DNA of 64,000 nucleotides from a virus (Duplodnaviria > Heunggongvirae > Uroviricota > Caudoviricetes): the IMG/VR virus record IMGVR_UViG_3300036945_000745; one strand, written 5' to 3'. Positions 4,360-24,999 of the stretch are shown one piece after another. The notes beneath the pieces are model-generated. The model was not told the origin of the DNA. It saw only the letters and a program-made list of their open reading frames with translations, and made no database searches. Within the stretch, counting starts at the first letter, position 1. Each line of letters begins with the position of its first letter. The position numbers and the translations under genes are program-made.

Positions 4360-4905
4360 TTAATCAAGTATTATTTTAACTATTTTTGCCAATCTATTTG
4401 ATTTAGCTACAATAGTTAACGTATCCCCTTTCATATTATACATCGGAGCTATTACTGTATTGATACTACCATCTGCCGAATTGTAACATATAGGGTTGAT
4501 AGTTGGTACTTGCGCAGATTTAAGATTAACTACCTTAATACTATCTACGATTTGCCATCCCAATCCTCGCCACGTCCTACGATATATTGTACCAATGGAC
4601 TCACCTTGCTTCAGTGTCCAATAATGAGAGCTTTCCCATTCCACTTTCTCTCTTGGATTATCTGGCACTCTTCCATTTATTCTAATTGAGCCTGATATTG
4701 TATGGATGTTTTGAGTTGTAGTTGAATACAACTTAAAATGAGAATACCCATTCACATCAATTGGTAAACGGGTATCGATATTCATTTCAATACTATTGTT
4801 TGGAAATATATCTTCTTTACTACATGATGAAAAAAATGTGATACATGCTAATAACAAAATATAAATTGCCATAAGTATCAATTTATCATATGATTTATTT
4901 TTCAT
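4360..4905 (-). CDS. putative lipoprotein
   Basis: N-terminal hydrophobic segment ending FFSSC (lipobox-like). Confidence 0.5.
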   Translation of the reverse strand: MKNKSYDKLILMAIYILLLACITFFSSCSKEDIFPNNSIEMNIDTRLPIDVNGYSHFKLYSTTTQNIHTISGSIRINGRVPDNPREKVEWESSHYWTLKQGESIGTIYRRTWRGLGWQIVDSIKVVNLKSAQVPTINPICYNSADGSINTVIAPMYNMKGDTLTIVAKSNRLAKIVKIILD

Positions 4906-13090: not shown

Positions 13091-13186
13091 ACCTATTTCG
13101 TACTCATCACCCCCGAGACAGGAGGGCTTGTCTGCCAGATTTGCACACGTACAAATCATTTTCCAACACACTACAATTTATTTTTG

Positions 13187-13272
13187 CGGAAGGAGTAGGA
13201 TTCGAACCCACGGTACCTTTCAGTACACTTGATTTCAAGTCAAGCGCGATAGACCAACTCTGCCATCCTTCC
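13187..13272 (-). tRNA. tRNA-Ser (anticodon UGA), type II
   Basis: Acceptor GGAAGGA/UCCUUCC; anticodon arm CUUGA-CUUGAAA-UCAAG; long variable arm; T-arm GUGGG-UUCGAAU-CCUAC. Confidence 0.8.
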
Positions 13273-13296
13273 GTTATATACAACTATATGTATATA

Positions 13297-13578
13297 TTAT
13301 AATATTTTTTTATCATTTCTTCTACGAGCTTCTTCAGCTTCTTTATACCAACGAATCCAAGTTAGGGATACATCGATAGGCGCTAATACCCAAGCCATCA
13401 TCACCACCATAATAGAATCTAAGCCAGGTGATAATCCAATCATACCTTCATTATATCTATTTTGATATTTTGTGAATAGTTGATAGAAACAATAGATAAC
13501 GCAAATTGCGTAATAAGTCCAAAACATAACTTTTAATTTTACTTTTAATAAAAATGAGTTTATGGGGAATGATTCCAA
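13297..13578 (-). CDS. membrane protein
   Basis: Two TM helices. Confidence 0.45.
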   Translation of the reverse strand: MESFPINSFLLKVKLKVMFWTYYAICVIYCFYQLFTKYQNRYNEGMIGLSPGLDSIMVVMMAWVLAPIDVSLTWIRWYKEAEEARRRNDKKIL

Positions 13579-13761
13579 ATATAAAGGTTATCCAGGTTCA
13601 GCGAGGTTTGAATTTATTGATATCACGCGACAAGAGACCCTAATATTTTTGAAGTTTGTTAATTATTCATTATCTTATTCGTTCATCCGCTATTTGGTGT
13701 CATAGTAGAATTGTAAGAATAAACTAAATAAATGGTTTCAAACCCCACTCACTCAATATTT

Positions 13762-14220
13762 TTAGATTTGAGTTGTTGCGTTATGAACATCCAATTCATC
13801 TTGCAACTGCTCAATTTTTACATTTAGAATATCCACTTTTTTTTGGATATCTACAATTGATAATTCTACTTCTTTTACTGAAACAACACTTCCATATCGG
13901 GAGTCTTGCTTTCCTTCATCCGTTGGAACTTTCTTTAATTCCTTTACCAAACCTTTCAATTCAGCCAATGCGAAGATTTTATCATACACCGGTTGGTTTG
14001 CTCTATGCAATTCGGCTTTCAATTGAACCAACTCATTTGTCAATTCAGTAACCTTATCCAATGCTTCTGCCATTGAATATCTACGAGGATTTCCTTCTTC
14101 TATTGAATTATACTTTTTCAAAATCTCATATTGAGCTTTCAAATCTGCAACCAATTTGTTTTTTGCCTTTAAGGCCTGCTTTACGTTCATATCTTTAAGT
14201 TTTATCGTTTTGTTTTTCAA
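13762..14220 (-). CDS. coiled-coil protein
   Basis: Heptad-rich 152-aa ORF. Confidence 0.5.
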   Translation of the reverse strand: MKNKTIKLKDMNVKQALKAKNKLVADLKAQYEILKKYNSIEEGNPRRYSMAEALDKVTELTNELVQLKAELHRANQPVYDKIFALAELKGLVKELKKVPTDEGKQDSRYGSVVSVKEVELSIVDIQKKVDILNVKIEQLQDELDVHNATTQI

Positions 14221-14255
14221 ATATACTATATTAATTTGGATTTTCCAAATTTATT

Positions 14256-15401
14256 TTAATGAGAATCGCCAACATTGTGTTTTTCAGCGAAAATTAAATA
14301 ATCAGGATTTATTACCTTTGCTATCTTCTCTCTACCTTTAGATTGGTGTTTGATTACAATACCCTCCTCCGGCACTTTAGTACCTTCAATGAAATTATTG
14401 AATACATACTTATCTTGTACTTCTTGTGACCACCTACCAAAGTGTAAAATCTCTACATATGGTAATTCCAAAATATCTTTGATTAAAAGTTTAGAGTTGA
14501 TTGGGTCTAAATACTCACCATCCTCCTTTACATCGAATCCTACGAACTCAATCTCACTCAACCCATAATCGTATCCCTTTTGGATTCCAGCTCCGTAAAT
14601 CTCACCATATAAAGTGATACCATCTCCGATAACTACATCCATATCTTCATTCTTAACATAATCCCATAACTTTTGTTTGATACCATATTTCTTATCGATT
14701 TCATACCATACGTTTGTATCGTAGAATCCATTAGAATCTGAACCTTTCTCAACATTATGCGAACCAACTACGAATTCGAACTCATCCCATTTGTTACCAA
14801 ATCCAAAGAACTTCTTAATATTATGCCAAACTGATAATTTAAGTTTCCTAACAATACCATATCTGGCATTTGTTCCGTGAATTTTACGAGTGATTTCAAC
14901 CGTATCTTCTTCAGTAAACATTCCAGGTACATTCTTTAAGTTTGGAAACTTATAATATACGTGAAAGTTTGGATTATCTTGGTATCTGATTTTCTTACCA
15001 CTTGCCAATTGAACCATTTTTACGGGTGGTTCAAATTTAACAATACCAAAAATATGCATACAATCACTACCTTCTTTCAAATCCCAATCTCCGATAGTAC
15101 TTCTACCATGTAAGAATTTATTTGGAATGATTAAACATTCTGAATATACACCTCTTAATTTCACAGTCCTAACTCTACCACCTTTACGAAGATAGCTAGT
15201 AACTCCCATCTCATCCGATAATGATTCCGGAATTACGGCATCGGTTGTAGCGATGATAACTTCATCACCTATTTTTTGCTCACCTTTTTTAGTGATACAA
15301 TTCCAACCACCAACTACTGCTAACTCAATGTTATCAGCTCCTTCAATTGGTTTGATTTCATTAATTGTTGCTACATAGCAAACTGAATTATTATTTTCCA
15401 T
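14256..15401 (-). CDS. ATP-dependent RNA ligase, Rnl2-like, with N-terminal extension
   Basis: Nucleotidyltransferase motif I RKIHGTNARYG (T4 Rnl2 has KIHGTN). Motif IV EEGIVIK about 165 residues downstream, followed by conserved lysines. Confidence 0.65.
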   Translation of the reverse strand: MENNNSVCYVATINEIKPIEGADNIELAVVGGWNCITKKGEQKIGDEVIIATTDAVIPESLSDEMGVTSYLRKGGRVRTVKLRGVYSECLIIPNKFLHGRSTIGDWDLKEGSDCMHIFGIVKFEPPVKMVQLASGKKIRYQDNPNFHVYYKFPNLKNVPGMFTEEDTVEITRKIHGTNARYGIVRKLKLSVWHNIKKFFGFGNKWDEFEFVVGSHNVEKGSDSNGFYDTNVWYEIDKKYGIKQKLWDYVKNEDMDVVIGDGITLYGEIYGAGIQKGYDYGLSEIEFVGFDVKEDGEYLDPINSKLLIKDILELPYVEILHFGRWSQEVQDKYVFNNFIEGTKVPEEGIVIKHQSKGREKIAKVINPDYLIFAEKHNVGDSH

Positions 15402-15406
15402 TTCTT

Positions 15407-15823
15407 TTATAATTGAATTTCAAATCTATTAGCCATTTGTTTTATTTTTTCTTCTGGCACATTATGTACATTATCACCATCGTGTCTATTTTCAACAATG
15501 ATTGAATGAACTCTATATCCATATTGCTTTGCTAATCCAAAATATGTATCCATTTCCCATCGTTTGGTGAATGTATTGGATACTACAATATGCGGATAGA
15601 ATTGTTCATTAAGTTGATTATCTTTCATTCGCATTTCTACCTCATCTCTACACCATTTATGTGCAGCAGTTAATTTATTACTATCAAAGTTATAGTTTCC
15701 CTCCTTATCATAGAAAAACTTATCAGCTTCACATACTGAAAATTCATTTGTGATAGTATTTGCGAATGTCGTTTTACCACTTCCTGGCAACCCTCTTACT
15801 AATGTTAATATTTTTGGTATCAT
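15407..15823 (-). CDS. P-loop polynucleotide-kinase-like protein (AAA_33)
   Basis: Walker A LVRGLPGSGKTTFA; about 140 aa; adjacent to the ligase and two phosphatases. Confidence 0.6.
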   Translation of the reverse strand: MIPKILTLVRGLPGSGKTTFANTITNEFSVCEADKFFYDKEGNYNFDSNKLTAAHKWCRDEVEMRMKDNQLNEQFYPHIVVSNTFTKRWEMDTYFGLAKQYGYRVHSIIVENRHDGDNVHNVPEEKIKQMANRFEIQL

Positions 15824-15829
15824 AATTTA

Positions 15830-16048
15830 TTATTTATCTTCTATCCAAATATGCATATCGGTTATTAATGGATTTGATTCACCCGGTATGTAATATGGGT
15901 TACTAATGCTTTTCCATTTCATACCACACCTATTACATATACACTTATTGGGCATCCACCCAAAATTATATGAGTATTTGTGACCTATTATTTTACAAAT
16001 CCACTTTTTCATTTTACTTATAATTCTCCACAATCTCGTGATGGTCAA
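15830..16048 (-). CDS. small Cys-rich (zinc-ribbon-like) protein
   Basis: CKIIGHKY...CICNRCG; overlaps the start of the next ORF. Confidence 0.3.
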   Translation of the reverse strand: MTITRLWRIISKMKKWICKIIGHKYSYNFGWMPNKCICNRCGMKWKSISNPYYIPGESNPLITDMHIWIEDK

Positions 16049-16667
16049 ATATGAACATACTTTTGATTGGTTGGTTTCTCATTAATCTCAATACTTCACT
16101 CATTTGAATTGGGTACAATCCGTTTCCATCCACACCCACATCCATCATTTTTCCAGCACCAATTCGTAACCTAGGTTCAAAGTGAACGTGCCCATGCAAA
16201 TGGATAGCGCCTCTCGCCATATTATCCCAACTTGCTATTGGAAAGTGCATTAGAGCAAATCGTATATCATCATATCCACCACTTCCATTTGGAAATTTCA
16301 CATTTAAGTTTAGGTATTTGTTTACCGAAGCAAAAAGCGATTGACAACCTTCTCTGTTGTTTTCAATGTGATGGTCGTGGTTGCCTGTAATGATGTGAAT
16401 GTTTTTACAAACAATTTGATTTCTGAATTGTTCGATACTTTCAAATCCACCAAAACTCCAATCACCTAAGTGAAATAGAATATCATCCTGTCCGACCATT
16501 TCGTTGATGTTACCAACGAGGTGAGCGTTCATATGTTCTAATGTTTTGAATTCTCTACAAGTCACCGGGTCTGTCCACTTTGTTGTAGCGGAACAAATAT
16601 TAGCATGGTTGTAGTGTGTATCACTTGTAAACCATAACTTCTGTCCTTTTTCTAATACTATTTTCAT
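16014..16667 (-). CDS. calcineurin-type metallophosphoesterase
   Basis: FTSDTHYNH (DxH), LGDWSFGG (GDxx) and ITGNHDHH (GNHD/E) motifs. Confidence 0.7.
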   Translation of the reverse strand: MKIVLEKGQKLWFTSDTHYNHANICSATTKWTDPVTCREFKTLEHMNAHLVGNINEMVGQDDILFHLGDWSFGGFESIEQFRNQIVCKNIHIITGNHDHHIENNREGCQSLFASVNKYLNLNVKFPNGSGGYDDIRFALMHFPIASWDNMARGAIHLHGHVHFEPRLRIGAGKMMDVGVDGNGLYPIQMSEVLRLMRNQPIKSMFIFDHHEIVENYK

Positions 16668-16672
16668 AACTC

Positions 16673-17236
16673 TTATTTTAAGAATTCTATAATCTTTTCT
16701 TTTATTCCACTTTGTTTAATACCTTCTCTACTTTTAGGCGTTAATACGAAGTTATCTAACCCCCAGTTTTTCCAATCCTCACCATTCTTACCCATATCCA
16801 AATCATCAATAGAAACCCAATGTGTTATATCATTGTTATCTCTAAGATATTGAAGTATCTCCAATGAGCGAGATTGTTCTAAATCCCATTGTCGTGACCA
16901 TATGAAGTTTTCGGGTACATCACAATCACCTAAGTTTTTCGTAAAGGCGATTGGTTTCTTTTTGATTCCCTGTGATTCATAATATTCACCCATCTCCTCA
17001 ACACTTGCCCATCGTTTCCAATCAGATGAGATAACAATTTCAGCGTTAGTTTCTTCCAATATTTCATTTAGTATATTGATTGCTTTCTTATTAAAATTAT
17101 CAAATCGAGAAAGAACTGGCAATGAACCAACTGATTGACTTAGTTTACGTCCTGCTTCTCTTTGTTTCTTAAATCTACCTCCCCACTCTGTGGATAAACA
17201 TATAACACCATCGTGGTCTAAAAATATTACTTTCAT
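16673..17236 (-). CDS. HAD-superfamily phosphatase
   Basis: Motif I FLDHDGVI (DxDG) at the N-terminus. Confidence 0.55.
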   Translation of the reverse strand: MKVIFLDHDGVICLSTEWGGRFKKQREAGRKLSQSVGSLPVLSRFDNFNKKAINILNEILEETNAEIVISSDWKRWASVEEMGEYYESQGIKKKPIAFTKNLGDCDVPENFIWSRQWDLEQSRSLEILQYLRDNNDITHWVSIDDLDMGKNGEDWKNWGLDNFVLTPKSREGIKQSGIKEKIIEFLK

Positions 17237-17892
17237 TATTCTTCTTTTAAAGTATCTCTTAATTTTTTAATAGTTTCCAAATTATTATTTTCTAAATCCA
17301 ATGAATTTGGATAATATAATAATGTTGGATTCTTTTTCTGAATATCGATGTTTGGATATTTTTTTTTAAATTCCATTACATCAAATTTCTTAGTAATCAA
17401 ATGATGACCACTTTTTGTTGGAATTATTGATTCAATTTTAGAACCGTATGGTTTACATTCATTATCAATATACGCCATCATAATTGGACTTGCATCTTTT
17501 ATATCATCTACATCAATAATCCATCTCTTCTCTTGCGTTTTGATTTGACCAACTACTGAATCGAATAAACCTTTTTGATTTGTGTTACCATCTTGTATTC
17601 GTTGTGCGAGAGTAACCATCATATTCAAACTTACATCAAAATGATTTTGTTTCTGAATGTGTATATATGCTCTTGCTTTAAACATCTCACACATCTGAAT
17701 TACTTCATCCCATCTACGTTCTAAATGGTCAATACTCTCAATACAATAAGTTTTAATAGTTCTTACCGATTGATGATTATCCCTTTCACCTTCAGGCTGG
17801 TCCTTCTTACGTTTAAAAACATATAGCATATAGAAGTCACCCTTCGTTTCGAAGTTTAGTAACGGCTTTATTAACTTTAAATTGTTTATCAT
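17236..17892 (-). CDS. hypothetical protein, possibly AEP (primase-polymerase-like) fold
   Basis: WIIDVDD fits the hhhDhD motif and PTKSGHHLIT fits sGxGxH; the match is loose. Confidence 0.3.
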   Translation of the reverse strand: MINNLKLIKPLLNFETKGDFYMLYVFKRKKDQPEGERDNHQSVRTIKTYCIESIDHLERRWDEVIQMCEMFKARAYIHIQKQNHFDVSLNMMVTLAQRIQDGNTNQKGLFDSVVGQIKTQEKRWIIDVDDIKDASPIMMAYIDNECKPYGSKIESIIPTKSGHHLITKKFDVMEFKKKYPNIDIQKKNPTLLYYPNSLDLENNNLETIKKLRDTLKEE

Positions 17893-17920
17893 AACTTACA
17901 TTTTACTCCGTAAATATACG

Positions 17921-17954
17921 AAAAAAACCCCACATTGCCAAATAATTGTGAGGT
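17921..17954 (-). terminator. intrinsic terminator after the tRNA array
   Basis: Minus-strand hairpin CCUCACA...UGUGGGG followed by a U7 run. Confidence 0.5.
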
Positions 17955-17963
17955 TTTTTGTTG

Positions 17964-18034
17964 TTACCCGAGCAGGATTCGAACCTACCCTAACTGCACC
18001 AAAAACAGTTGTGCTACCGCTACACCATCAGGCA
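17964..18034 (-). tRNA. tRNA-Gln (UUG)
   Basis: Cloverleaf UGCCUGA...UCGGGUA; anticodon loop UUUUGGU; T-loop UUCGAAU. Confidence 0.75.
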
Positions 18035-18115
18035 AAATTCTCAAGCATTCTACTCCCCGCAATACGGAATTGTATCTAACTTAGCCCATCGTTGGCGGTA
18101 TGGGTACTTGAGTTG

Positions 18116-18187
18116 AGCGAGTATTCGGACTCGAACCGAAATCTCCGACTTGGAAGGCCGGAACACTAACCATTGTGCTATACTCGC
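18116..18187 (-). tRNA. tRNA-Gly (UCC)
   Basis: GCGAGUA acceptor; anticodon loop CUUCCAA; T-arm UUCGG-UUCGAGU-CCGAA. Confidence 0.85.
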
Positions 18188-18243
18188 ATTTAGTGGATGA
18201 ACAACATCTATCGTTCTTGCGGCTTCCCACTAAAGCCCATTTG

Positions 18244-18316
18244 AGCGAAAGACCGGGCTCGAACCGGCTACCCTCACCTTGGCAAGGTGATGCTCTACCA
18301 AATGAGCTACTTTCGC
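18244..18316 (-). tRNA. tRNA-Gly (GCC)
   Basis: GCGAAAG acceptor; anticodon loop UUGCCAA; T-loop UUCGAGC. Confidence 0.85.
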
Positions 18317-18708
18317 TTGTGACCCCTACCATTCTTTCTAGCGGATTCAGCCATTTTCTTTTTACCTTCGGCTGAAACATTTCTACTAGCGAATGTTGGA
18401 GTTTGTGAATGGCAATTAGGACAAAGTATTCTTAAATTATCATAAGTATTATTTGTTCTATCACCATCAATATGGTCTACATGCATACTAATTTCATGTC
18501 CCAACCACTCTGTGATTCCACAATCCTCACATTTATTTCCTCTAATTCGTTTAAGATAGATTGCCATATTATGATGCCAAACACTACCCTTTACAAATCT
18601 TTGTTTTACAGAGTACTCACCCTGACATTTGTTTGAACAATACTTACCATTTTTTTGAGATGGCATATAATCAAACTCTTTGTCACAATTTATACAATTA
18701 CCTTTCAT
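18307..18708 (-). CDS. HNH homing-type endonuclease
   Basis: HVDHIDGDRTNNTYDNLRILCPNCHSQ (HNH plus zinc knuckle); lies inside the tRNA array. Confidence 0.7.
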   Translation of the reverse strand: MKGNCINCDKEFDYMPSQKNGKYCSNKCQGEYSVKQRFVKGSVWHHNMAIYLKRIRGNKCEDCGITEWLGHEISMHVDHIDGDRTNNTYDNLRILCPNCHSQTPTFASRNVSAEGKKKMAESARKNGRGHKRK

Positions 18709-18766
18709 AGTTTTTTTCTTTTATATAAATATTAGAATACTTAAAAAAGATAAACTATTCTAACTA

Positions 18767-18843
18767 TGGTGGACCAGATAGGGCTCGAACCTATGACCTA
18801 CGCATTATGAGTGCGGCGCTCTAACCGACTGAGCTACAAGTCC
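18767..18843 (-). tRNA. tRNA-Met or tRNA-Ile2 (CAU), CCA encoded
   Basis: GGACUUG acceptor; loop CUCAUAA; 3' ACCA encoded. Confidence 0.8.
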
Positions 18844-18895
18844 AATTATCGTTTAATCTAACGATAAAATCTAATATCGTTTATTTCAACGATAG

Positions 18896-18969
18896 TGGAG
18901 ATAGAGGGATTCGAACCCACGACCCTCTACGTGCAAGGCAGATGCTCTAGCCAACTGAGCTATATCCCC
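18896..18969 (-). tRNA. tRNA-Ala (UGC)
   Basis: GGGGAUA acceptor with the G3:U70 alanine determinant; loop CUUGCAC. Confidence 0.8.
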
Positions 18970-19081
18970 ATTAATGTAATGTCTGTGCGGTTTGTTTCGA
19001 ATCCACTCCTTTGTACGAGTTTCAAAAGTTTCCATTTCATTCTTAGCATCTGTTCCGCTATTCTTTCGAATCATTACATTG

Positions 19082-19166
19082 TACCTCGGGCCAGACTCGA
19101 ACTGGCACGAACCTTTCGGTTCAAAGGATTTTAAGTCCTTCGTGGCTACCATTACACCACCGAGGC
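19082..19166 (-). tRNA. tRNA-Leu (UAA), type II
   Basis: GCCUCGG acceptor; anticodon arm AAGGA-CUUAAAA-UCCUU; long variable arm. Confidence 0.8.
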
Positions 19167-19169
19167 AAC

Positions 19170-19607
19170 TTATAATATGTAAAGTTTAACTTTATGAAAC
19201 TTAGTTTGTTTATCTTTCGGATTGATTAAAATATCAATTTTCTTTCTCCACCTACTATGCATCAAATCTCTAACTACATATACACCACTTAGTTTTCCAA
19301 TTCCGGTAACTCTTACCTTATCTCCAAATCTAAGTTTCTTTTTTAAATCTCTACTCACAGCTATTACCCTGTGCTTTTTAGGATTTGTTTTACTTAACCT
19401 AAATCCACTAGCCGTTATGGTTGGTGAACTATCGGTTTCTGATTCACTTACAGTATAGGTTGTTGCCGTTACTATAAGTGCATTTTGTTTCTTTACAACA
19501 ACTTCCTCTTTTTCCTTTTCAACCTCAAACTTTCTACCATCAAATTTACTAACACTTGCTGGCATCATTACAAAGATACAAAATAAAGTTCTGATTAATA
19601 TGCTCAT
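19170..19607 (-). CDS. secreted 3D-domain (MltA/YuiC-like) protein
   Basis: Signal peptide; C-terminal IAVSRDLKK-LRFGDKVRV...GVYVVRDLMHSRWRKKIDI fits the 3D-domain pattern. Confidence 0.45.
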   Translation of the reverse strand: MSILIRTLFCIFVMMPASVSKFDGRKFEVEKEKEEVVVKKQNALIVTATTYTVSESETDSSPTITASGFRLSKTNPKKHRVIAVSRDLKKKLRFGDKVRVTGIGKLSGVYVVRDLMHSRWRKKIDILINPKDKQTKFHKVKLYIL

Positions 19608-19625
19608 ACGCTTTTCTTTTGTTAG

Positions 19626-19699
<74 letters not shown>

Positions 19700-19704
19700 A
19701 TATG

Positions 19705-19778
19705 CGGGATGTACGGGACTCGAACCCGTGACCTTCGCCGTGACAGGGCGACATTGTAACCAACTCTACTAACATCCC
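19705..19778 (-). tRNA. tRNA-Asp (GUC)
   Basis: GGGAUGU acceptor; loop CUGUCAC. Confidence 0.8.
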
Positions 19779-19782
19779 ATTG

Positions 19783-19855
19783 AGCCTCCGGTCGGGCTCG
19801 AACCAACCACCTGCTGATTACAAATCAGCTGCTCTACCAAATGAGCTACGGAGGC
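19783..19855 (-). tRNA. tRNA-Thr (UGU)
   Basis: GCCUCCG/CGGAGGC acceptor; loop UUUGUAA. Confidence 0.85.
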
Positions 19856-19953
19856 AATTAAAGATTAACTACACCTATTAAAGAAATCACATCTTCTTTT
19901 CCCCAAACGAGGAATTAGTTTCACCCACATAGGCGATTTACATTAATCTTTTG

Positions 19954-20027
19954 TACTCCGTACGGGGCTCGAACCCGTAAGCTCTCCCGTGAAAGGGGAG
20001 TGTCCTAACCAATTAGACGAACGGAGC
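19954..20027 (-). tRNA. tRNA-Glu (UUC)
   Basis: Anticodon arm CUCCC-CUUUCAC-GGGAG. Confidence 0.8.
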
Positions 20028-20062
20028 GTTTGCTTTTTAAATACCTATCTATCAAAGAACTT

Positions 20063-20100
20063 ATACAAATATACAGAAAGTTTTTCAAATTTCCTAATAT
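20063..20100 (-). promoter_or_regulatory. RNA-gene-class promoter repeat (AGGAAnTTTGAAAAACTTTCTGTATATTTG)
   Basis: About 40-nt repeat shared with copies at 23463, 23584 and 24232; exact TATATTTG -7 box. Confidence 0.45.
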
Positions 20101-20104
20101 TTTT

Positions 20105-20578
20105 TTACATTTTTACTAAATGGTCAGCCGCATATGTTGCGATTGGACCTAATGTTTTATATCTAACTTCATATCCCATACCTTCAACCATACCAACCGC
20201 CTGTCTGAATACTTCGTTAGATTTATATCTAGGGTCTGGGTTCAAATCCACATCAATCCAACGAGGTTTCGGAATACCTGCTTCCTTCATCATCTCTGCC
20301 GTTTCAATAGCGTACCATACTTCATTTAACAAACGAGTAGAACGAGTCCATTCTTTTTTAGTTTGCCATCTTCTGAATAATACGTGTGCTCCTTTACCTC
20401 TATGATACAAAGCAACTACTACGGCGTATGTCGTTTTATCAGCACGATTTTGTGAATCACATCCAATAAGTATATCAACATCATCATACATATCTATATA
20501 ATTTGTAATATATTCTTCCAATTCTACACTTTCACCTGTTAGTTTTTTGTAAACCATAGTTATAAATTTTGTACCCAT
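20105..20578 (-). CDS. hypothetical protein, possible RNase H-like nuclease
   Basis: D...E...D...D spacing (ILIGCDSQ, YAIETAE, WIDVDLNPD, AADHLV); weak. Confidence 0.3.
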   Translation of the reverse strand: MGTKFITMVYKKLTGESVELEEYITNYIDMYDDVDILIGCDSQNRADKTTYAVVVALYHRGKGAHVLFRRWQTKKEWTRSTRLLNEVWYAIETAEMMKEAGIPKPRWIDVDLNPDPRYKSNEVFRQAVGMVEGMGYEVRYKTLGPIATYAADHLVKM

Positions 20579-20646
20579 AGAAGGACTCGAACCTTCAATT
20601 GTGTGGTGTCTAAAGCCACTGCGTATTCCAATTCCGCCATACGGGC
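20572..20646 (-). tRNA. atypical tRNA, anticodon UAG (Leu by anticodon) but type-I architecture
   Basis: GCCCGUA/UAUGGGU acceptor; T-arm GAAGG-UUCGAGU-CCUUC; anticodon stem GUGGC/ACCAC with a C-A at the loop end; 6-nt variable region. Confidence 0.5.
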
Positions 20647-20655
20647 AATTTTAAG

Positions 20656-20741
20656 TAGAGAGTAAGGGGCTCGAACCCTTGCGACTTTAACATCCTACCT
20701 GTTTAGCAAACAGGCCCCTTCACCAACTTGGGTAACTCTCT
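20656..20741 (-). tRNA. tRNA-Ser (GCU), type II
   Basis: AGAGAGU/ACUCUCU acceptor; loop UUGCUAA; long variable arm. Confidence 0.85.
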
Positions 20742-20743
20742 AT

Positions 20744-20820
20744 TGGGGTGATTAATGGGATTCGAACCCATACTATCAGTACCACAAACTGACGTGCTAA
20801 CCATTAACACTATAAACACC
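20744..20820 (-). tRNA. tRNA-His (GUG) with G-1 and encoded CCA
   Basis: Extra 5' G pairs with C73 (histidine identity element); loop UUGUGGU; 3' CCCA. Confidence 0.8.
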
Positions 20821-20888
20821 ATATTTCGTATAATATATTATACATTTACCCCTAAATACCAGGTTTTTGTATAGTATAATATACATTG

Positions 20889-20958
20889 TTGCATGTATGA
20901 GGTTCGAACTCATTTGGTCATCCTTATGAGAGATAACTCTTTTCCACTAAGCCATGCA
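20889..20958 (-). tRNA. tRNA-like gene, anticodon CAU, with a degenerate D-arm (possible Met/Ile2 or pseudo-tRNA)
   Basis: Loop CUCAUAA; T-arm AUGAG-UUCGAAC-CUCAU; acceptor has 6 bp plus a G-A; no convincing D-stem; 70 nt. Confidence 0.4.
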
Positions 20959-21025
20959 GTTTGTGGAATCGAACCACTTTCCCAACTCCACGTCGGGCGA
21001 TATATCCAATATCCTTCACCGGTTG
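20959..21025 (-). ncRNA. tRNA-sized element with a T-arm but no foldable acceptor or anticodon stem (tRNA remnant?)
   Basis: GUGG-UUCGAUU-CCAC T-arm; exactly fills the gap between two tRNAs. Confidence 0.25.
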
Positions 21026-21095
21026 AGGTCAATGTTGGAATCGAACCAACTCCGTAAGTTTTGCAGACCCACCGGCCTCCACGACCAAACTGACC
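21026..21095 (-). tRNA. tRNA-Cys (GCA)
   Basis: GGUCAGU/AUUGACC acceptor; loop CUGCAAA; short D-arm. Confidence 0.75.
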
Positions 21096-21101
21096 ATTAT
21101 G

Positions 21102-21173
21102 TAGTTCTATTAGGATTCGAACCCAAACTTCTTCATCCGTAGTGAAGGGTGCTATCCGTTACACCATAGAACT
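21102..21173 (-). tRNA. tRNA-Arg (ACG)
   Basis: Anticodon arm CUUCA-CUACGGA-UGAAG. Confidence 0.85.
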
Positions 21174-21178
21174 ATTAG

Positions 21179-21249
21179 CACGGATAGAAAGATTCGAACT
21201 TCCATCAAAGGTTTTGGAGACCCGTATGCTACCATTGCACCATACCCGT
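21179..21249 (-). tRNA. tRNA-Trp (CCA)
   Basis: GGUCUCCAAAACC anticodon region. Confidence 0.8.
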
Positions 21250-21340
21250 AATTAATAAGGCGTTACGCATCCATCTGTAACTTTACTTTTTTTGAGTCCG
21301 GATGTGGCCACATCAACTCTGGGAACTATTACCTTATTTG

Positions 21341-21414
21341 TTGGTAATGCGGGATTCGAACCTGCCACCTTCTCGGTATCAGCGAGATGCTCTAACCAAA
21401 TGAGCTAATTACCA
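21341..21414 (-). tRNA. tRNA-Ile (GAU)
   Basis: UGGUAAU/AUUACCA acceptor; loop CUGAUAC. Confidence 0.85.
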
Positions 21415-21420
21415 ATATTG

Positions 21421-21496
21421 TCGGATAGGCAGGATTCGAACCTGCGTGCTCTGCTTCCCAAAAGCAGCGAGATAGACCTGACTCCTCTACTATCCG
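21421..21496 (-). tRNA. tRNA-Pro (UGG)
   Basis: CGGAUAG/CUAUCCG acceptor; loop UUUGGGA. Confidence 0.85.
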
Positions 21497-21502
21497 TTAT
21501 TG

Positions 21503-21576
21503 TGAACCCGAATGGACTCGAACCATTGACTCCCTCATTAAAAGTGAGGTGCTCTAACCAACTGAGCTACGGATTC
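21503..21576 (-). tRNA. tRNA-Lys (UUU)
   Basis: Anticodon arm CCUCA-CUUUUAA-UGAGG. Confidence 0.85.
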
Positions 21577-21581
21577 AATTG

Positions 21582-21654
21582 TGGGACCTAATGGAATCGA
21601 ACCATTTCCTTTGGATTTTCAGTCCAACGTACGCACCAGCTATACGAAAGCCCC
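21582..21654 (-). tRNA. tRNA-Phe (GAA)
   Basis: Anticodon arm UUGGA-CUGAAAA-UCCAA. Confidence 0.8.
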
Positions 21655-21660
21655 AATTGG

Positions 21661-21740
21661 TGGGAGTAGACGGACTCGAACCGCCGAACCCGAAGGAGAG
21701 CATTTACAGTGCCCCGCAATTGCCGCTATGCGATACTCCC
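21661..21740 (-). tRNA. tRNA-Tyr (GUA), type II
   Basis: GGGAGUA/UACUCCC acceptor; loop CUGUAAA; long variable arm. Confidence 0.85.
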
Positions 21741-21808
21741 AATTTCCAATTTTGTTATCACCATTTCCCCTCTAAACGAGCGGCGTGTTCCGGATTGGTA
21801 ACCGTTAG

Positions 21809-21882
21809 TAGGAGATATAGGATTCGAACCTATGACCCTTTGGATGTAAACCAAATGCTCTAACCAACTGAGCTAATCTTCT
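21809..21882 (-). tRNA. tRNA-Val (UAC)
   Basis: Anticodon arm UUUGG-UUUACAU-CCAAA. Confidence 0.8.
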
Positions 21883-21885
21883 ATT

Positions 21886-21960
21886 TGGCGGGGGAAGATG
21901 GATTCGAACCAACAACCTTTGAATTAACAGTTCACTGCTCTACCGTTGAGCTATACCCCC
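21886..21960 (-). tRNA. tRNA-Asn (GUU), CCA encoded
   Basis: ACUGUUAAU anticodon region; 3' GCCA. Confidence 0.8.
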
Positions 21961-21994
21961 AAAACAAAAAACCCCTAACTTTGTGAGTTAGAGG
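21961..21994 (-). terminator. intrinsic terminator abutting the 5' end of tRNA-Asn
   Basis: Minus-strand CCUCUAAC-UCACAAA-GUUAGGGG hairpin followed by UUUUUUGUUUU. Confidence 0.5.
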
Positions 21995-23462
21995 TTTAAA
22001 TATTCTTATAAAATTTTTACACTTTATCCTAATATGATGTCCTCTAACTTTGTACTAATATAATCCACTTTGCCTAAATTCAAGACTGCCGGATTTGCTA
22101 TCGTACTAAACATACCATTCCCTGTCCACTCATTTCTTTGCGGTTGCAGGTTACAAATTGTATGTTGCGTTAAAGTTTTCATCGTTAATATATATCTAAT
22201 TATTTTAATTTATTCATTTTTTTAAAAAAAGAGTTTTGGAAGGCGGAACTCTTAATATTGTACTTCTATCTGAACCGGCAATATTTTATCGTGTCTTATT
22301 GCGTTTTTGTTGAAAACCCTTCCGAAAAACAGCTACCCTTACTTACTTTTTAGTTTATGCTTTTAGGTCATTTAAACTAAGTTGCCTTATTAGCCAAGCA
22401 CAATCTTAAATGTGGACCACGAGAATCTTAATTGAGCGGTGAAAGGTGCTGCCCCCCTCCTCCTATCTGGAATGATAGGCGTGCTACTGTTACACTAACA
22501 CCGCTTATAAAAAAAGGATGAGAATACTCCTTTTGGCGAACCAGCTTTAGAAAGATTATTTGATTCCTTCCGTTTCCACACCCTTTTGAGGTGTACCAAT
22601 TCAATGTGGGTTAGTAATGCCAACCACTCATAGAGTTTCAAACTACTCTCTTCCTACTTATTTTCTTCAAGCCTCGCAGCCTGATTAGTTCTTGCGGAAT
22701 TAGAAACCTTTCAAAAGAATCACAGACCTCTTGCGGAGGTATCGTGGCAGGGAACAACTCCCTACTATGTACACACCTTTCATCTGAAACTGGTAAACAC
22801 TTTTGCTTAATTTGATTTATAAGTTTGCACTTCATACGGCAAATTGAGTTTTGGTTTGTAGATGGATTCGAGTAGTGGTTTACCACCAGCTCCGTTATCT
22901 TTTGAACAACAGAATACTATACTACTCAATGTGTTATCCCTAACACCATACATCAAGTCATCTTCAATAGAAGGGGTTGGTGCCCCACTCTAAAGGATAG
23001 TAACGCCACCACGCGTACACAGTCTTATCTTACGTCCTTTCGGATAGCTTGATTCTCAAGACCACTTTGGTATTGAATCACGCAATGATAAGGAGAGATT
23101 AAGTCCTTACTTCTCGCAATAATTCTATGAGTTATTCTTATTGATGTTCCCATCTCAACTGAACAATCTACGTTTGCCCAGTCATTTCGGCTCTTCGATG
23201 ATAGTGTTACCCCCATCTACAAAGTCAAAATGATATCTCACTTGCCTACTCAAGCTTATCTCCCTTACGGGGGAGTAGCCGCAGTTACATTAACCAATGT
23301 ACCCACTTTATCCTACTTTCGTAGTTTATTTCACGACCATAGGCGGCCGTTGTTACACTATGTAGAACGAATCTACTATGTGTAATCTTTTCAGTATTTT
23401 AAAGAACATTTTTGAAGTTGAATACCGAGTATCTTTCATTACCTATAAGTTTCAAACTTATT

Positions 23463-23503
23463 ATAAAGATACGAAAAGTTTTTCAAACTTCCTAATTTAT
23501 TTT
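23463..23503 (-). promoter_or_regulatory. RNA-gene-class promoter repeat, reading into the ORF-free region
   Basis: Plus-strand ataaagatacgaaaagtttttcaaacttcctaatttatttt. Confidence 0.4.
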
Positions 23504-23583
23504 ACTTTTTTTGTTGAACATTTTCGGCTATCCTGCTAATGTGTGTTTAGACTATACTGCCTTCCTACTTCTGAACAACTTTA

Positions 23584-23622
23584 CAAATATACGAAAACAT
23601 TTTCACATTTCCTAATTTATTT
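23584..23622 (-). promoter_or_regulatory. RNA-gene-class promoter repeat, reading into the ORF-free region
   Basis: Plus-strand caaatatacgaaaacattttcacatttcctaatttattt. Confidence 0.45.
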
Positions 23623-23638
23623 GTAAATATTTTTTTAG

Positions 23639-23710
23639 TTGCGGATGAAGGATTCGAACCTCCGACCTTATGGTTATGAGCCACACGAGCTACCACTGCT
23701 CTAATCCGCG
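23639..23710 (-). tRNA. initiator tRNA-fMet (CAU)
   Basis: C1xA72 mismatch, A11:U24 pair, loop CUCAUAA, GG/CC at the base of the anticodon stem: all bacterial initiator hallmarks. Confidence 0.7.
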
Positions 23711-23754
23711 ATATAATTTTAAAGAACTTCTATATTGTTGTATTTATATATATA

Positions 23755-23768
23755 CAAATATACGGAAA
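23755..23768 (-). promoter_or_regulatory. promoter for initiator tRNA-fMet
   Basis: TATATTTG -7 box about 40 nt upstream of the tRNA 5' end. Confidence 0.45.
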
Positions 23769-23806
23769 AAAATAAAAAATACAAAATAATTTTTACTTTT
23801 TTTTTG

Positions 23807-24211
23807 TGGAGGTGGAGGGAGTCGAACCCTCGTCCAAATACGGAGTTAATAACCATCGTTCACAAGCTTATTTAGTTTTTCTTAACTAACAAAATAAATA
23901 GTTTCTAATTCCCCGTTGCTACTATTAAACTTAGATGGTTCTATTGTTAAGGATAATTACCAAAAACACTTCCTATTTCTTTTCGGATAGAAATCACACC
24001 TGGTTTCACATTCTTTTTTACCTCACGATGTGTGCGAGGAAGGATTAGGCTGCTACAGCGTAATCGGCACCTACGAAAGACATTGCATCTTCGAAGGTCA
24101 TTGTAGATAATTCTACTGCGTTTATTGTTCGATAGGTATTTACGGATTTCCATCTAACCCGGCTTGCATCAACTTACCAATTCATCGTACCTGTCAAATC
24201 CAGGCACCCCC
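23807..24211 (-). ncRNA. ssrA: tmRNA (SsrA)
   Basis: 5' GGGGGUGCCUGGAUUUGACAGG and 3' GAGGGUUCGACUCCCUCCACCUCCA form a tRNA-Ala-like acceptor with G3:U70. Internal reading frame ...GCCGAUUACGCUGUAGCAGCCUAA encodes ...GADYAVAA followed by a stop. Confidence 0.8.
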
Positions 24212-24231
24212 TTATTTCAAATAACTTATTA

Positions 24232-24271
24232 CAAATATACAGAAAGTTTTTTAAACTTCCAAATTTATTTT
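24232..24271 (-). promoter_or_regulatory. promoter for tmRNA
   Basis: RNA-gene-class repeat; -7 box TATATTTG about 20 nt upstream of the mature tmRNA 5' end. Confidence 0.5.
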
Positions 24272-24999
24272 ATAATATTTGCGTTTTTCAACATTAATTG
24301 TGTGGTTACCCACTTCTTACCAATTGGATTCTTTATGCCAGAAGTAATAAAATTACTAACATTCTTTTTAATATCTCCGGTAACATTATTACCATCATTA
24401 CTATTATCCACAATACGGAAATTACCGCTGAACATTGTTTGGAATTTACCCAAATTGTTTTGGCAATCTTTCCAAATTGGAATCAATAGGTTTTCTGGCA
24501 ATACTCTATCTCTCTTAGAGTTTCTATGTTTAGCAACTTCCAAAGATGTGTTTACAAATACCATAAAGGTATCGTATCCCAATGCTTCAGCTCTTTGCTT
24601 TTGTTTTTGAATCTTAGCTACATCATCACCCGTTCCATCGATAACCATTCCTAATCTACCCTCTTCATAAAATGATTTAATCTTTTGAGTAGTTTGCTTA
24701 GCCAATTCTCTTACACCATGTGGGTCTTTAGTAATCTTATCCCATAATTCGGGTTGCTCTTTTTCTATCTTAGCTAAATCCTTTGGGTCAATTCCATTCT
24801 TTTTTAATTGAGCTTCAAATGCCGTATCTGAATTTACAGACTTCAAACCACTAGCTGAAAAAGATGCAATACCTTGTATTCCAAATATCTCTTTTGATAC
24901 TTTTGATTTACCACTACCAGGTCCTCCTGCTAAAAATATACATTTTAGAATGCCTGGGTCATATACACCCTCCTTTAACAAATCAGTTAATCGCATCAT
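24265..24999 (-). CDS. P-loop nucleotide/nucleoside kinase-like protein
   Basis: Walker A IFLAGGPGSGKSKV; substrate unknown. Confidence 0.5.
   Translation of the reverse strand: MMRLTDLLKEGVYDPGILKCIFLAGGPGSGKSKVSKEIFGIQGIASFSASGLKSVNSDTAFEAQLKKNGIDPKDLAKIEKEQPELWDKITKDPHGVRELAKQTTQKIKSFYEEGRLGMVIDGTGDDVAKIQKQKQRAEALGYDTFMVFVNTSLEVAKHRNSKRDRVLPENLLIPIWKDCQNNLGKFQTMFSGNFRIVDNSNDGNNVTGDIKKNVSNFITSGIKNPIGKKWVTTQLMLKNANIIK

Follow-up and report, generated by a model that had tools for sequence, protein, structure and literature searches.

What lies between the transfer RNA (tRNA) genes of a large tailed phage, where long open reading frames (ORFs) give way to some 1.5 kb of DNA? The question is raised by the IMG/VR record IMGVR_UViG_3300036945_000745 (Caudoviricetes), of which we analysed a stretch of 64,000 nucleotides (nt), hereafter the window. 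On its minus strand ARAGORN locates 24 tRNA genes at 13186–21960 and, on the other side of the gap, a tRNA-Met (23638–23710) and a transfer-messenger RNA (tmRNA; 23806–24211). Positions 21996–23462 hold not a single ATG-initiated ORF of at least 90 amino acids (aa); such ORFs cover ∼84% of the sequence outside 17.9–24.3 kb, a crude measure of coding density that counts only ATG-ORFs of this size. An initial annotation, made without database searches, had proposed that the gap encodes a large ornate phage RNA of the GOLLD or ROOL kind. As set out below, the gap is very probably a non-coding transcription unit whose core is a GOLLD RNA gene of this large phage.

A GOLLD RNA gene of the env-38 subtype

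In an Rfam 15 scan of the whole window, GOLLD was the sole match other than tRNAs and tmRNA. The model RF02032, which represents only the universally conserved 3′ domain of the family, was matched over its full length (1–416 of 416; 22929–22515, minus strand) with 292.2 bits against a gathering threshold (GA) of 150 and an E-value of 1.6e-82. The covariance search that the initial annotation had itself recommended thus bore out its guess of GOLLD. No match to ROOL, HEARO, group I and II introns, RNase P or 6S RNA reached the cut-off, and searches of 21900–24300 and 21960–22530 at E≤10 yielded nothing of note. ROOL is likewise a large phage-borne nanocage RNA found beside tRNA arrays, but it is unrelated to GOLLD in sequence and fold.

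GOLLD env-38, an RNA of 833 nt (5′ domain, residues 1–420; 3′ domain, residues 421–833) located downstream of a tRNA-Met, was found by cryo-electron microscopy (cryo-EM) to form a D7 14-mer nanocage in a study that assembled a non-redundant set of 806 GOLLD sequences (Kretsch et al. 2025, PMC12286853). Positions 23351–22515 of the window align with env-38 end to end at ∼70% identity, the whole 5′ domain included; the reference, taken from Supplementary Table 4 of that paper, was machine-read PDF text that contains errors and comprises 815 of the 833 nt. Therefore, the window holds an 837-nt GOLLD of the env-38 subtype, structured in both domains, and it is almost certain that a GOLLD RNA gene is the core of the region. 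Of the 1467 nt for which a large RNA had been proposed, ∼840 are accounted for in this way; the rest is made up of a leader, a cloverleaf, a spacer, a probable small gene and a terminator-like hairpin.

With env-38 the window RNA shares the two-domain architecture, the length, the degree of identity in both domains and the site after a tRNA-Met beside a phage tRNA array; here GOLLD sits between tRNA-Met/tmRNA and the 24-tRNA array, and the neighbouring proteins match PHROGs. The bridge residues of env-38 and both of its L21a/L21b-type CCGCAAG loops are also kept. In contrast to env-38, the window adds a helix (P0), a leader hairpin and a boxA, which both the Rfam model and the env-38 construct lack, shows a G·U wobble in the B4 kissing helix and has a degenerate tRNA-like cloverleaf after GOLLD; ARAGORN detected no tRNA embedded in the GOLLD linker. 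Landmarks of the 5′ domain include the invariant CUAC-GAAA-GUAG hairpin (loop 23320–23317), G140/G141 and A145/C146 within 23212–23205, and the loops GGAA (23150–23147), GGU (23010–23008) and ACCAA (22981–22977), whereas the two CCGCAAG loops lie in the 3′ domain at 22736–22730 and 22697–22691.

Relatives of the locus were collected through the neighbouring 244-aa P-loop kinase-like protein (24265–24999), which led to 65 related viral loci, and through the invariant 5′-domain motif CTACGAAAGTAGGATAAAG, which occurs in more than 119 further viral contigs. By segment-wise blast, 125 loci have a homologous 5′ domain and 109 a homologous 3′ domain. The four closest loci share the synteny of kinase, tmRNA, tRNA-Met, promoters, GOLLD, gap and tRNA array. 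All homologous loci are IMG/VR viral contigs except for two genomes of uncultured phages of 635–642 kb; among GenBank phages no close relatives were found, the only matches (66–74%) being to these two genomes. Both of them, LR756502.1 (642 kb; L001, the L numbers being our locus identifiers) and LR745206.1 (635 kb; L002), show this synteny as well and have a complete GOLLD of the env-38 subtype, scoring 275 and 287 bits, respectively; in L001 a tRNA begins ∼10 nt past the GOLLD 3′ end.

The consensus structure computed with RNAalifold from 38 distinct full-length GOLLD sequences (alignment A2) comprises 186 predicted pairs, 131 of which show compensatory change. In this structure 96.9% of the alignment cells are paired, compared to 38–45% when the partners are slid by 1–3 columns, and the covariation score is 0.587 against 0.08–0.13 in the slid controls; none of 500 shuffles reached the observed values. 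Covariation runs through helices 1–20 of the 5′ domain, while helices 21–32 of the consensus (3′ domain) are 90–100% paired, most of them with compensatory changes. Comparative covariation, which had also been suggested as a check at the outset, therefore gives the same answer as the covariance model.

The opposite view, that the region is junk or decaying DNA or codes for small proteins, could appeal to two of the three ORFs reported in the initial annotation, of 82 aa (22638–22886) and 63 aa (23025–23216), which are indeed present in the ORF list. However, these frames are open in just 1 and 7 of 38 homologues, respectively, and were rejected as genes, and the sequence is conserved as RNA structure, so that we give this view practically no chance. 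The third ORF (68 aa, 23947–24153) turned out to be internal to the tmRNA and thus outside the region. The five hairpins listed in the same annotation are all real, being parts of GOLLD helices or, in the case of the one at 22455, the anticodon arm of the tRNA-like element further downstream, but they had been quoted from the plus strand, whereas the RNA is transcribed from the minus strand; the hairpin at 23255 reads CUCCC-CCGUAA-GGGAG, its loop being 6 nt long and not a GNRA tetraloop.

Bridge residues B1–B7 and the L21a/L21b loops were checked against the residue list in the env-38 supplement. The GAAA loop of B1 (A34/A35) and the AAAA loop of B6 are invariant in 38 of 38 sequences, as is the GGU loop of B5, whose partner ACCAA is present in 36; G140, G141, A145 and C146 of B2 are invariant columns, and the GGAA loop of B3 is present in the window. 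In B7, G546-C547 of J13/15 (22806–22805) and G618-C619 of the loop (22734–22733) can pair in every sequence, and this long-range L20–J13/15 contact covaries (GC/GC in 26, GG/CC in 8 and GA/UC in 4). Both CCGCAAG hairpin loops are of the L21a/L21b type, and P21b with the L21a/L21b kissing loops is specific to the env-38 tetradecamer as opposed to the smaller assemblies from Streptococcus (2026 review, PMC12990946). The window RNA thus retains the nucleotides responsible for contacts between subunits of the env-38 14-mer, and it is a well-grounded inference that it would self-assemble, without protein, into a D7 tetradecameric nanocage. Several points weigh against taking this further. Although the two sides of the B4 kissing helix are complementary in the window, one pair is a G·U; the bridge residues had to be mapped by local sequence context, the env-38 text being faulty; other GOLLDs form 8- to 12-mers (PMC12990946); and both cage formation and the 14-mer stoichiometry are carried over to this RNA by homology only.

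Promoters and leader

The elements that surround GOLLD are collected in Table 1.

Table 1. Predicted anatomy of the GOLLD locus, from the upstream promoter to the tRNA array (window coordinates).
Feature	Position	Strand	Properties
Promoter repeat copy 1	23575..23633	minus	−7 box TATATTTG at 23591–23584; exact TTTTCGTATATTTGT match
Promoter repeat copy 2 (GOLLD promoter)	23460..23513	minus	−7 box TATCTTTA at 23471–23464
Leader hairpin	23415..23458	minus	Covarying stem; invariant 22-nt apical region TATAGGYRATGAAAGATACTCGG; at predicted 5′ end
boxA-like element GTTCTTTAAAA	23397..23407	minus	Perfect match to GYTCTTTAANA
P0 hairpin	23353..23385	minus	Directly 5′ of GOLLD P1; UUACAC-AUA-GUAGA-UUCGU-UCUAC-AUA-GUGUAA
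GOLLD 5′ domain	22930..23351	minus	env-38 alignment; 125 homologous loci; covariation in helices 1–20
GOLLD 3′ domain	22515..22929	minus	RF02032 full-model match; includes linker J13/15
Cloverleaf 'TL', tRNA-Gly(UCC)-derived, 70 nt	22435..22504	minus	Starts 10 nt past GOLLD 3′ end
Variable spacer	22183..22434	minus	Window-specific insertions; poor conservation
Small ORF, 52 aa, MKTLTQHTICNLQPQRNEWTGNGMFSTIANPAVLNLGKVDYISTKLEDIILG	22024..22182	minus	Frame kept in 18 loci
Terminator-like hairpin	21961..21997	minus	12-pair stem, 5-nt loop, U-run, TTTTTTGTTTT; terminator scan

A promoter repeat family (D6) has copies at 20057, 23455, 23575, 23746 and 24223, and the two that the initial annotation had placed next to the region were recovered at 23455–23513 and 23575–23633. 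Their description as promoters of an RNA-specific class proved half right. An extended upstream part, represented in the GOLLD promoter by AAATTAGGAAGTTTGAAAAAC at 23498–23478, occurs in the window only at 20080, 23478 and 24246, each time before RNA genes. The −7 core TTTCGTATATTTG, on the other hand, is general in this genome: its 29 matches, against 10 expected, mostly precede protein genes, which rules out a core special to RNA genes. Relatives carry a promoter at the same position as the GOLLD promoter.

Each repeat copy holds TAnnTTTG on the minus strand or, before GOLLD, TATCTTTA. TAnnTTTG is the −7 box recognised by the sigma-A of Flavobacterium, where it spans −12 to −5 (PMC9723704); given this spacing, the GOLLD transcript is predicted to start near 23459. 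By the same token the host is probably a member of the Bacteroidota, the promoter type being the one trait from which the phylum is read, and this tells against a firmer assignment.

The upstream promoter copy points into a decayed stretch resembling a small RNA (sRNA), at 23574–23514, which is followed by the GOLLD promoter. The stretch (23514–23574, minus strand) is a 60-nt remnant of an sRNA-like element of ∼100 nt that sits between both promoters in 25 related loci and with which it can be aligned. In its intact form (for example, L004 11470–11578) the element consists of GGTTGAAGCCAACAWCTAATAAAACCGAWTGTGTGA, a variable hairpin and AAAGCCGGAYAYC, and shows the compensatory changes ACAA/TTGT, ACAT/ATGT, TCAA/TTGA and ATAG/CTAT; it had no match in Rfam.

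Folded as one piece, the leader (23460–23352) is hardly more stable than shuffled sequence (z = −0.84), and its elements were resolved by comparison only. An alignment of the regions 5′ of P1 in 38 loci brought out three conserved elements: the hairpin, the boxA and P0. The stem of the leader hairpin is 83% paired compared to 22–58% in slid controls, with compensatory changes in 9 of 11 pairs. Its motif occurs once in the window, where none is expected, and in 75 distinct versions in viral contigs, each a few nt past a −7 box. Among 105 pattern matches with enough downstream sequence GOLLD follows within 67–426 nt in 60, about 12 matches lie in coding sequence and are due to chance, and ∼25 genuine copies precede tRNAs or other units, so that the hairpin is not specific to GOLLD. 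Rfam offers no meaningful match, the only hit being to mir-4077 (23409–23458; 18.9 bits against a threshold of 83). P0 is better paired still (96% compared to 21–56% in slid controls; 9 of 11 pairs compensatory in alignment A4 of 21 loci) and is located outside both the Rfam model and the construct used for cryo-EM of env-38. In four loci (L188, L190, L210 and L260) the leader of hairpin plus boxA (GTTCTTTGAAA) stands before a sequence that is neither GOLLD nor tRNA and starts with ...ATATTGTGGTATT...; this may be another non-coding RNA (ncRNA), transcribed from a unit of the same design.

The boxA-like element, ∼52 nt past the predicted transcript start, conforms exactly to the published 11-nt consensus GYTCTTTAANA (PMC5725501). 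Within the 64 kb the relaxed pattern GYTCTTTRANA is matched just three times, in each case on the minus strand and shortly after the promoter of an RNA gene, namely GOLLD, tRNA-Met and tRNA-Glu. The latter two are located at 23717–23727, before tRNA-Met (23710), and at 20050–20060, before tRNA-Glu (20027), each on the minus strand and preceded by a promoter; that of the tmRNA is too near its gene to leave space for a boxA. This distribution suggests that all ncRNA units of the phage share one design of promoter plus boxA. Across GOLLD loci, a boxA is present in 37 of 38, 38–116 nt upstream of P1, against a background of 0.07 per kb; the length of the leader varies, yet the box is kept. In bacteria, Bacteroidetes included, boxA/Nus complexes shield the untranslated transcripts of ribosomal RNA (rRNA) operons and of arrays of clustered regularly interspaced short palindromic repeats (CRISPR) from Rho (PMC7665894). 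The arrangement in the window, a hairpin and then an exact boxA just past the promoter of a long, untranslated and structured transcript, resembles the rrn and lambda nut sites and boxA-protected CRISPR arrays (PMC7665894, PMC5725501). It differs from the former in that the apex of the hairpin, with its 22 invariant nt, is unlike the boxB of lambda or rrn and in that no boxC was identified in the leader, the comparison being one of sequence; unlike the rRNA and CRISPR examples, it belongs to a phage ncRNA operon and not to a cellular locus.

We consider it fairly probable that this element functions as a Nus antitermination site. A serious, if less favoured, competitor is that GTTCTTTAA is a promoter-proximal site, an RNase-processing site or a site for a phage protein that merely resembles boxA: the motif is short and AT-rich, and it is always paired with a phage-specific hairpin and an RNA-gene promoter. 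The exact agreement with the consensus, the restriction of its three matches to leaders of untranslated RNAs, its retention in leaders of changing length and the report of E. coli-like boxA upstream of Bacteroidetes CRISPR arrays (PMC7665894) speak for boxA proper. A complication for the antitermination reading is that Nus/boxA acts mainly against Rho, so that it may leave the passage of polymerase through the intrinsic-type hairpin at 21997 unexplained.

The 3′ side of GOLLD: cloverleaf, small reading frame and terminator-like hairpin

Homology among ∼100 loci stops sharply at 22515. We classified 98 distinct 3′ contexts of GOLLD: a called tRNA follows after 7–24 nt in 25 (Met in 16, Gly in 5), a fragment containing a T arm in 10, a cloverleaf of the type present in the window in 9, a terminator-like hairpin in 42 and something else in 12. 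We infer that the 3′ end is set by the terminal hairpin and U-run of GOLLD itself, with tRNA-type processing or a nearby terminator.

The cloverleaf of the window, which we refer to as TL, has four stems: the acceptor stem (6 bp plus U·U), the D and T stems, and the anticodon stem, which carries the loop CAUUCCAG. In relatives, this site is occupied by genuine tRNA-Gly(tcc) genes (for example, L182 8671–8742), with which TL can be aligned. Pairing in the cloverleaf amounts to 94.9% over 16 homologous sequences, and 14 of its 21 pairs show compensatory change. Nine loci, the window included, have had their T loop replaced and have lost the D-loop GG: TL has GCAGCA as T loop and AACAGUA as D loop, without UUCRANY and G18G19. 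The anticodon loop can be drawn with 8 nt, or with 6 nt and an extra pair, but not as a canonical 7-nt loop with U33; it is identical in 8 of the 9 degenerate copies, the ninth (L004) having CGUCCAG. The four-arm cloverleaf is the minimum-energy fold of three of four degenerate copies from relatives, whereas in the copies of the window and L094 the acceptor and D regions merge into an extended helix at minimum energy; folding z-scores of the copies range from −2.3 to −2.9. ARAGORN does not call TL, and the Rfam tRNA model does not match it even at E≤10. Thus, with its T loop and D-loop GG gone and neither program calling it, TL is tRNA-derived rather than a tRNA. In three loci (L152 3004–3153, L180 10087–10233 and L184 8044–8190) GOLLD is followed by two tandem tRNA-Gly-like genes, one with a normal UCC loop and the other called by ARAGORN with a 2-nt 'anticodon' (6-nt loop), which points to duplication and ongoing remodelling of the tRNA position.

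A tRNA-shaped module joined covalently to a large ncRNA recalls the 3′ elements of the MALAT1 mascRNA type, which act as signals for processing or stability, and in relatives of the window the module is a genuine tRNA. Mycolicibacterium GOLLDs have a tRNA-Phe embedded in the linker (PMC12990946), whereas the module described here is at the 3′ end; it further differs from both kinds in having no T-loop/D-loop elbow. Whether TL was selected as a processing or tethered element or has drifted is, on the sequence comparison, an even question; the elbow that it lacks is normally used by RNase P and RNase Z, which weakens the idea of processing.

Beyond TL, the spacer is matched in 2 loci and shows large indels in a five-way alignment (A1); its folding does not exceed that of shuffled sequence (z = +1.28), and it has no Rfam match. 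Poor conservation and shuffled-level folding of the 520 nt that follow GOLLD rule out another large ncRNA there. In relatives (L003 ∼4672–4760, L004, L005, L122, L094, L131, L148 and L183) an element of ∼65 nt with a 10-bp closing stem, GTAATTTAATGAGGCT...GAGCATGACTTGG.TGGCGTATTTTGAAATTAAATTAC, separates the cloverleaf from the small ORF; the window has an unrelated or diverged sequence instead.

The claim that the region lacks credible ORFs, correct for ORFs of 90 aa or more, had overlooked the 52-aa frame on the minus strand (22182–22024), which is kept in relatives. In the five-way alignment neither its start ATG nor the TAGATATATATT ahead of it varies. ORFs in the same position in 18 loci start with MKTLxLHT, contain W.G and often end with LEDTDVG, and differ in length (22–53 aa) by in-frame indels. 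Among the five closest, the ratio of nonsynonymous to synonymous substitution rates (dN/dS) is 0.22–0.75; no Pfam or PHROG family was matched. A conserved small protein gene had been named beforehand as the finding that would speak against an RNA here, and the probable gene of this kind is confined to the last 160 nt, leaving the GOLLD part untouched.

The terminator-like hairpin and T-run (21997–21961) were found where the initial annotation had seen a terminator, adjoining tRNA-Asn (start 21960). The U-run ends one base before that tRNA, an arrangement kept in 16 loci. There is no room for a promoter before tRNA-Asn, so that the first tRNA block probably needs read-through; the block at 21960–21025 may thus depend on read-through or antitermination.

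How these 3′ elements are best understood depends on three alternatives. That the entire 1.5 kb is one giant RNA, in which the mature GOLLD carries a clade-specific 3′ extension of ∼520 nt, seems improbable to us: although a single promoter upstream and a single terminator-like hairpin downstream mean that the primary transcript may span all of it, and a cloverleaf without an elbow could stay attached, homology in ∼100 loci ends at 22515, the spacer is variable and shows no excess folding, the distal part behaves as a coding ORF, and in other loci a terminator directly follows GOLLD. Still less likely, to the point of being scarcely credible, is that TL (22504–22435) works as a tRNA, for instance as a four-base decoder with an 8-nt anticodon loop. 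Its maintenance by compensatory changes, the near-constant anticodon loop and the real tRNA-Gly(UCC) genes at this site in relatives would fit such a role, but the T loop and G18/G19 have been lost together, the acceptor stem is reduced, neither detection program recognises it, and the array already includes a normal tRNA-Gly(UCC) at 18115–18187.

The remaining alternative concerns the 52-codon frame, which might be untranslated and conserved as an RNA or DNA element. The absence of a family match, the wide range of lengths, the concentration of conservation at the two ends and dN/dS values of 0.6–0.75 in some pairs, the last of which tell against a protein, make this a possibility to be kept in mind, albeit an unlikely one. 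Against it, 18 loci preserve the start ATG and the frame even though indels reach 23 codons, several of these loci also preserve the C-terminal LEDTDVG-stop, third-position changes predominate in the more diverged pairs (dN/dS 0.22–0.36), and 52 open codons are rare by chance in AT-rich sequence. On this comparative evidence we regard the frame as a likely small protein gene that would be translated.

Three neighbouring genes were also characterised. Within the tRNA array, a 157-aa ORF (20105–20578, minus strand) matches PF04308 RNaseH_like (E 2e-18) and phrog_11311. The 244-aa P-loop protein (24265–24999, minus strand), directly upstream of the tmRNA, is AAA_33-, zeta-toxin- or polynucleotide-kinase-like (phrog_12810), and its linkage to the tmRNA is kept in the four closest loci, L003–L006. 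The phage tmRNA (23806–24211, minus strand) encodes an unusually long tag of 24 aa, AVELSTMTFEDAMSFVGADYAVAA, common to relatives (...FEDAMAFVGADYAVAA); that of the relative L104 has the short host-like tag GEYNYAIAA instead.

Proposed transcription unit and its significance

Taken in order, these elements suggest the following course of events. Transcription would start near 23459 from the sigma-A type promoter (TTAGG...TATCTTTA). The nascent RNA would fold the conserved hairpin first and then expose boxA, which probably recruits host NusB/NusE so that, as in rRNA operons and CRISPR arrays, polymerase would not be stopped by Rho on a long, untranslated and folded transcript. Either the U-run behind the last GOLLD hairpin would fix the 3′ end of the RNA, or tRNA-processing enzymes would do so by way of the cloverleaf 10 nt further on. 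The unit would end with the small, probably translated ORF and the terminator-like hairpin, and some read-through would feed the promoter-less tRNA array. It counts against this scheme that promoter, start site, ends and processing are all deduced from sequence.

The 2025–2026 literature searched gives no cellular function of GOLLD. Our best, tentative guess is that the cage stores or protects an RNA cargo connected with translation while the phage grows lytically, because the linkage of GOLLD with tRNA, tmRNA and tRNA-like genes is obligatory; any specific cellular function for the cage should be regarded as at most equally conjectural. More doubtful still, as a joint reading, is the view that GOLLD is the core of a four-part module composed of a nut-like leader, the P0-extended GOLLD, an elbow-less tRNA-shaped 3′ appendage and a dedicated micro-protein. 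According to it, the nut-like leader, comprising the new hairpin motif and boxA, would make polymerase resistant to termination, while the appendage would have lost its elbow in order to evade tRNA processing and stay tethered to the cage, or to serve as a dedicated signal for 3′ maturation.

The window copy does not add an RNA class, since the GOLLD family and its association with phages and tRNA arrays are already established. In the GOLLD literature searched we found no description of an exact boxA, the leader hairpin, P0, an elbow-less cloverleaf or a linked small ORF, nor of systematic alternation of tRNA, tRNA-derived element and terminator at the GOLLD 3′ end. The boxA/hairpin leader, the tRNA-like 3′ element and the small ORF, as predicted here, would accordingly be modestly new features. 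If the four-part view is true, the GOLLD nanocage would gain its first candidate cargo or partner in the tRNA-like appendage, the peptide or both, and the leader hairpin would represent a new class of phage RNA for antitermination or stability, in broad use in ncRNA operons of Bacteroidota phages.

GOLLD is among the largest RNAs of bacteria and phages, and the structure of its 14-mer cage, solved in 2025, leaves the making and the contents of the cage unexplained. The ∼100 relatives give a clean map of the unit, with its promoter, leader hairpin and exact boxA, extra 5′ helix, sharp 3′ end and linked ORF. Features mapped in this way could turn the question of what the cage is for into concrete experiments.

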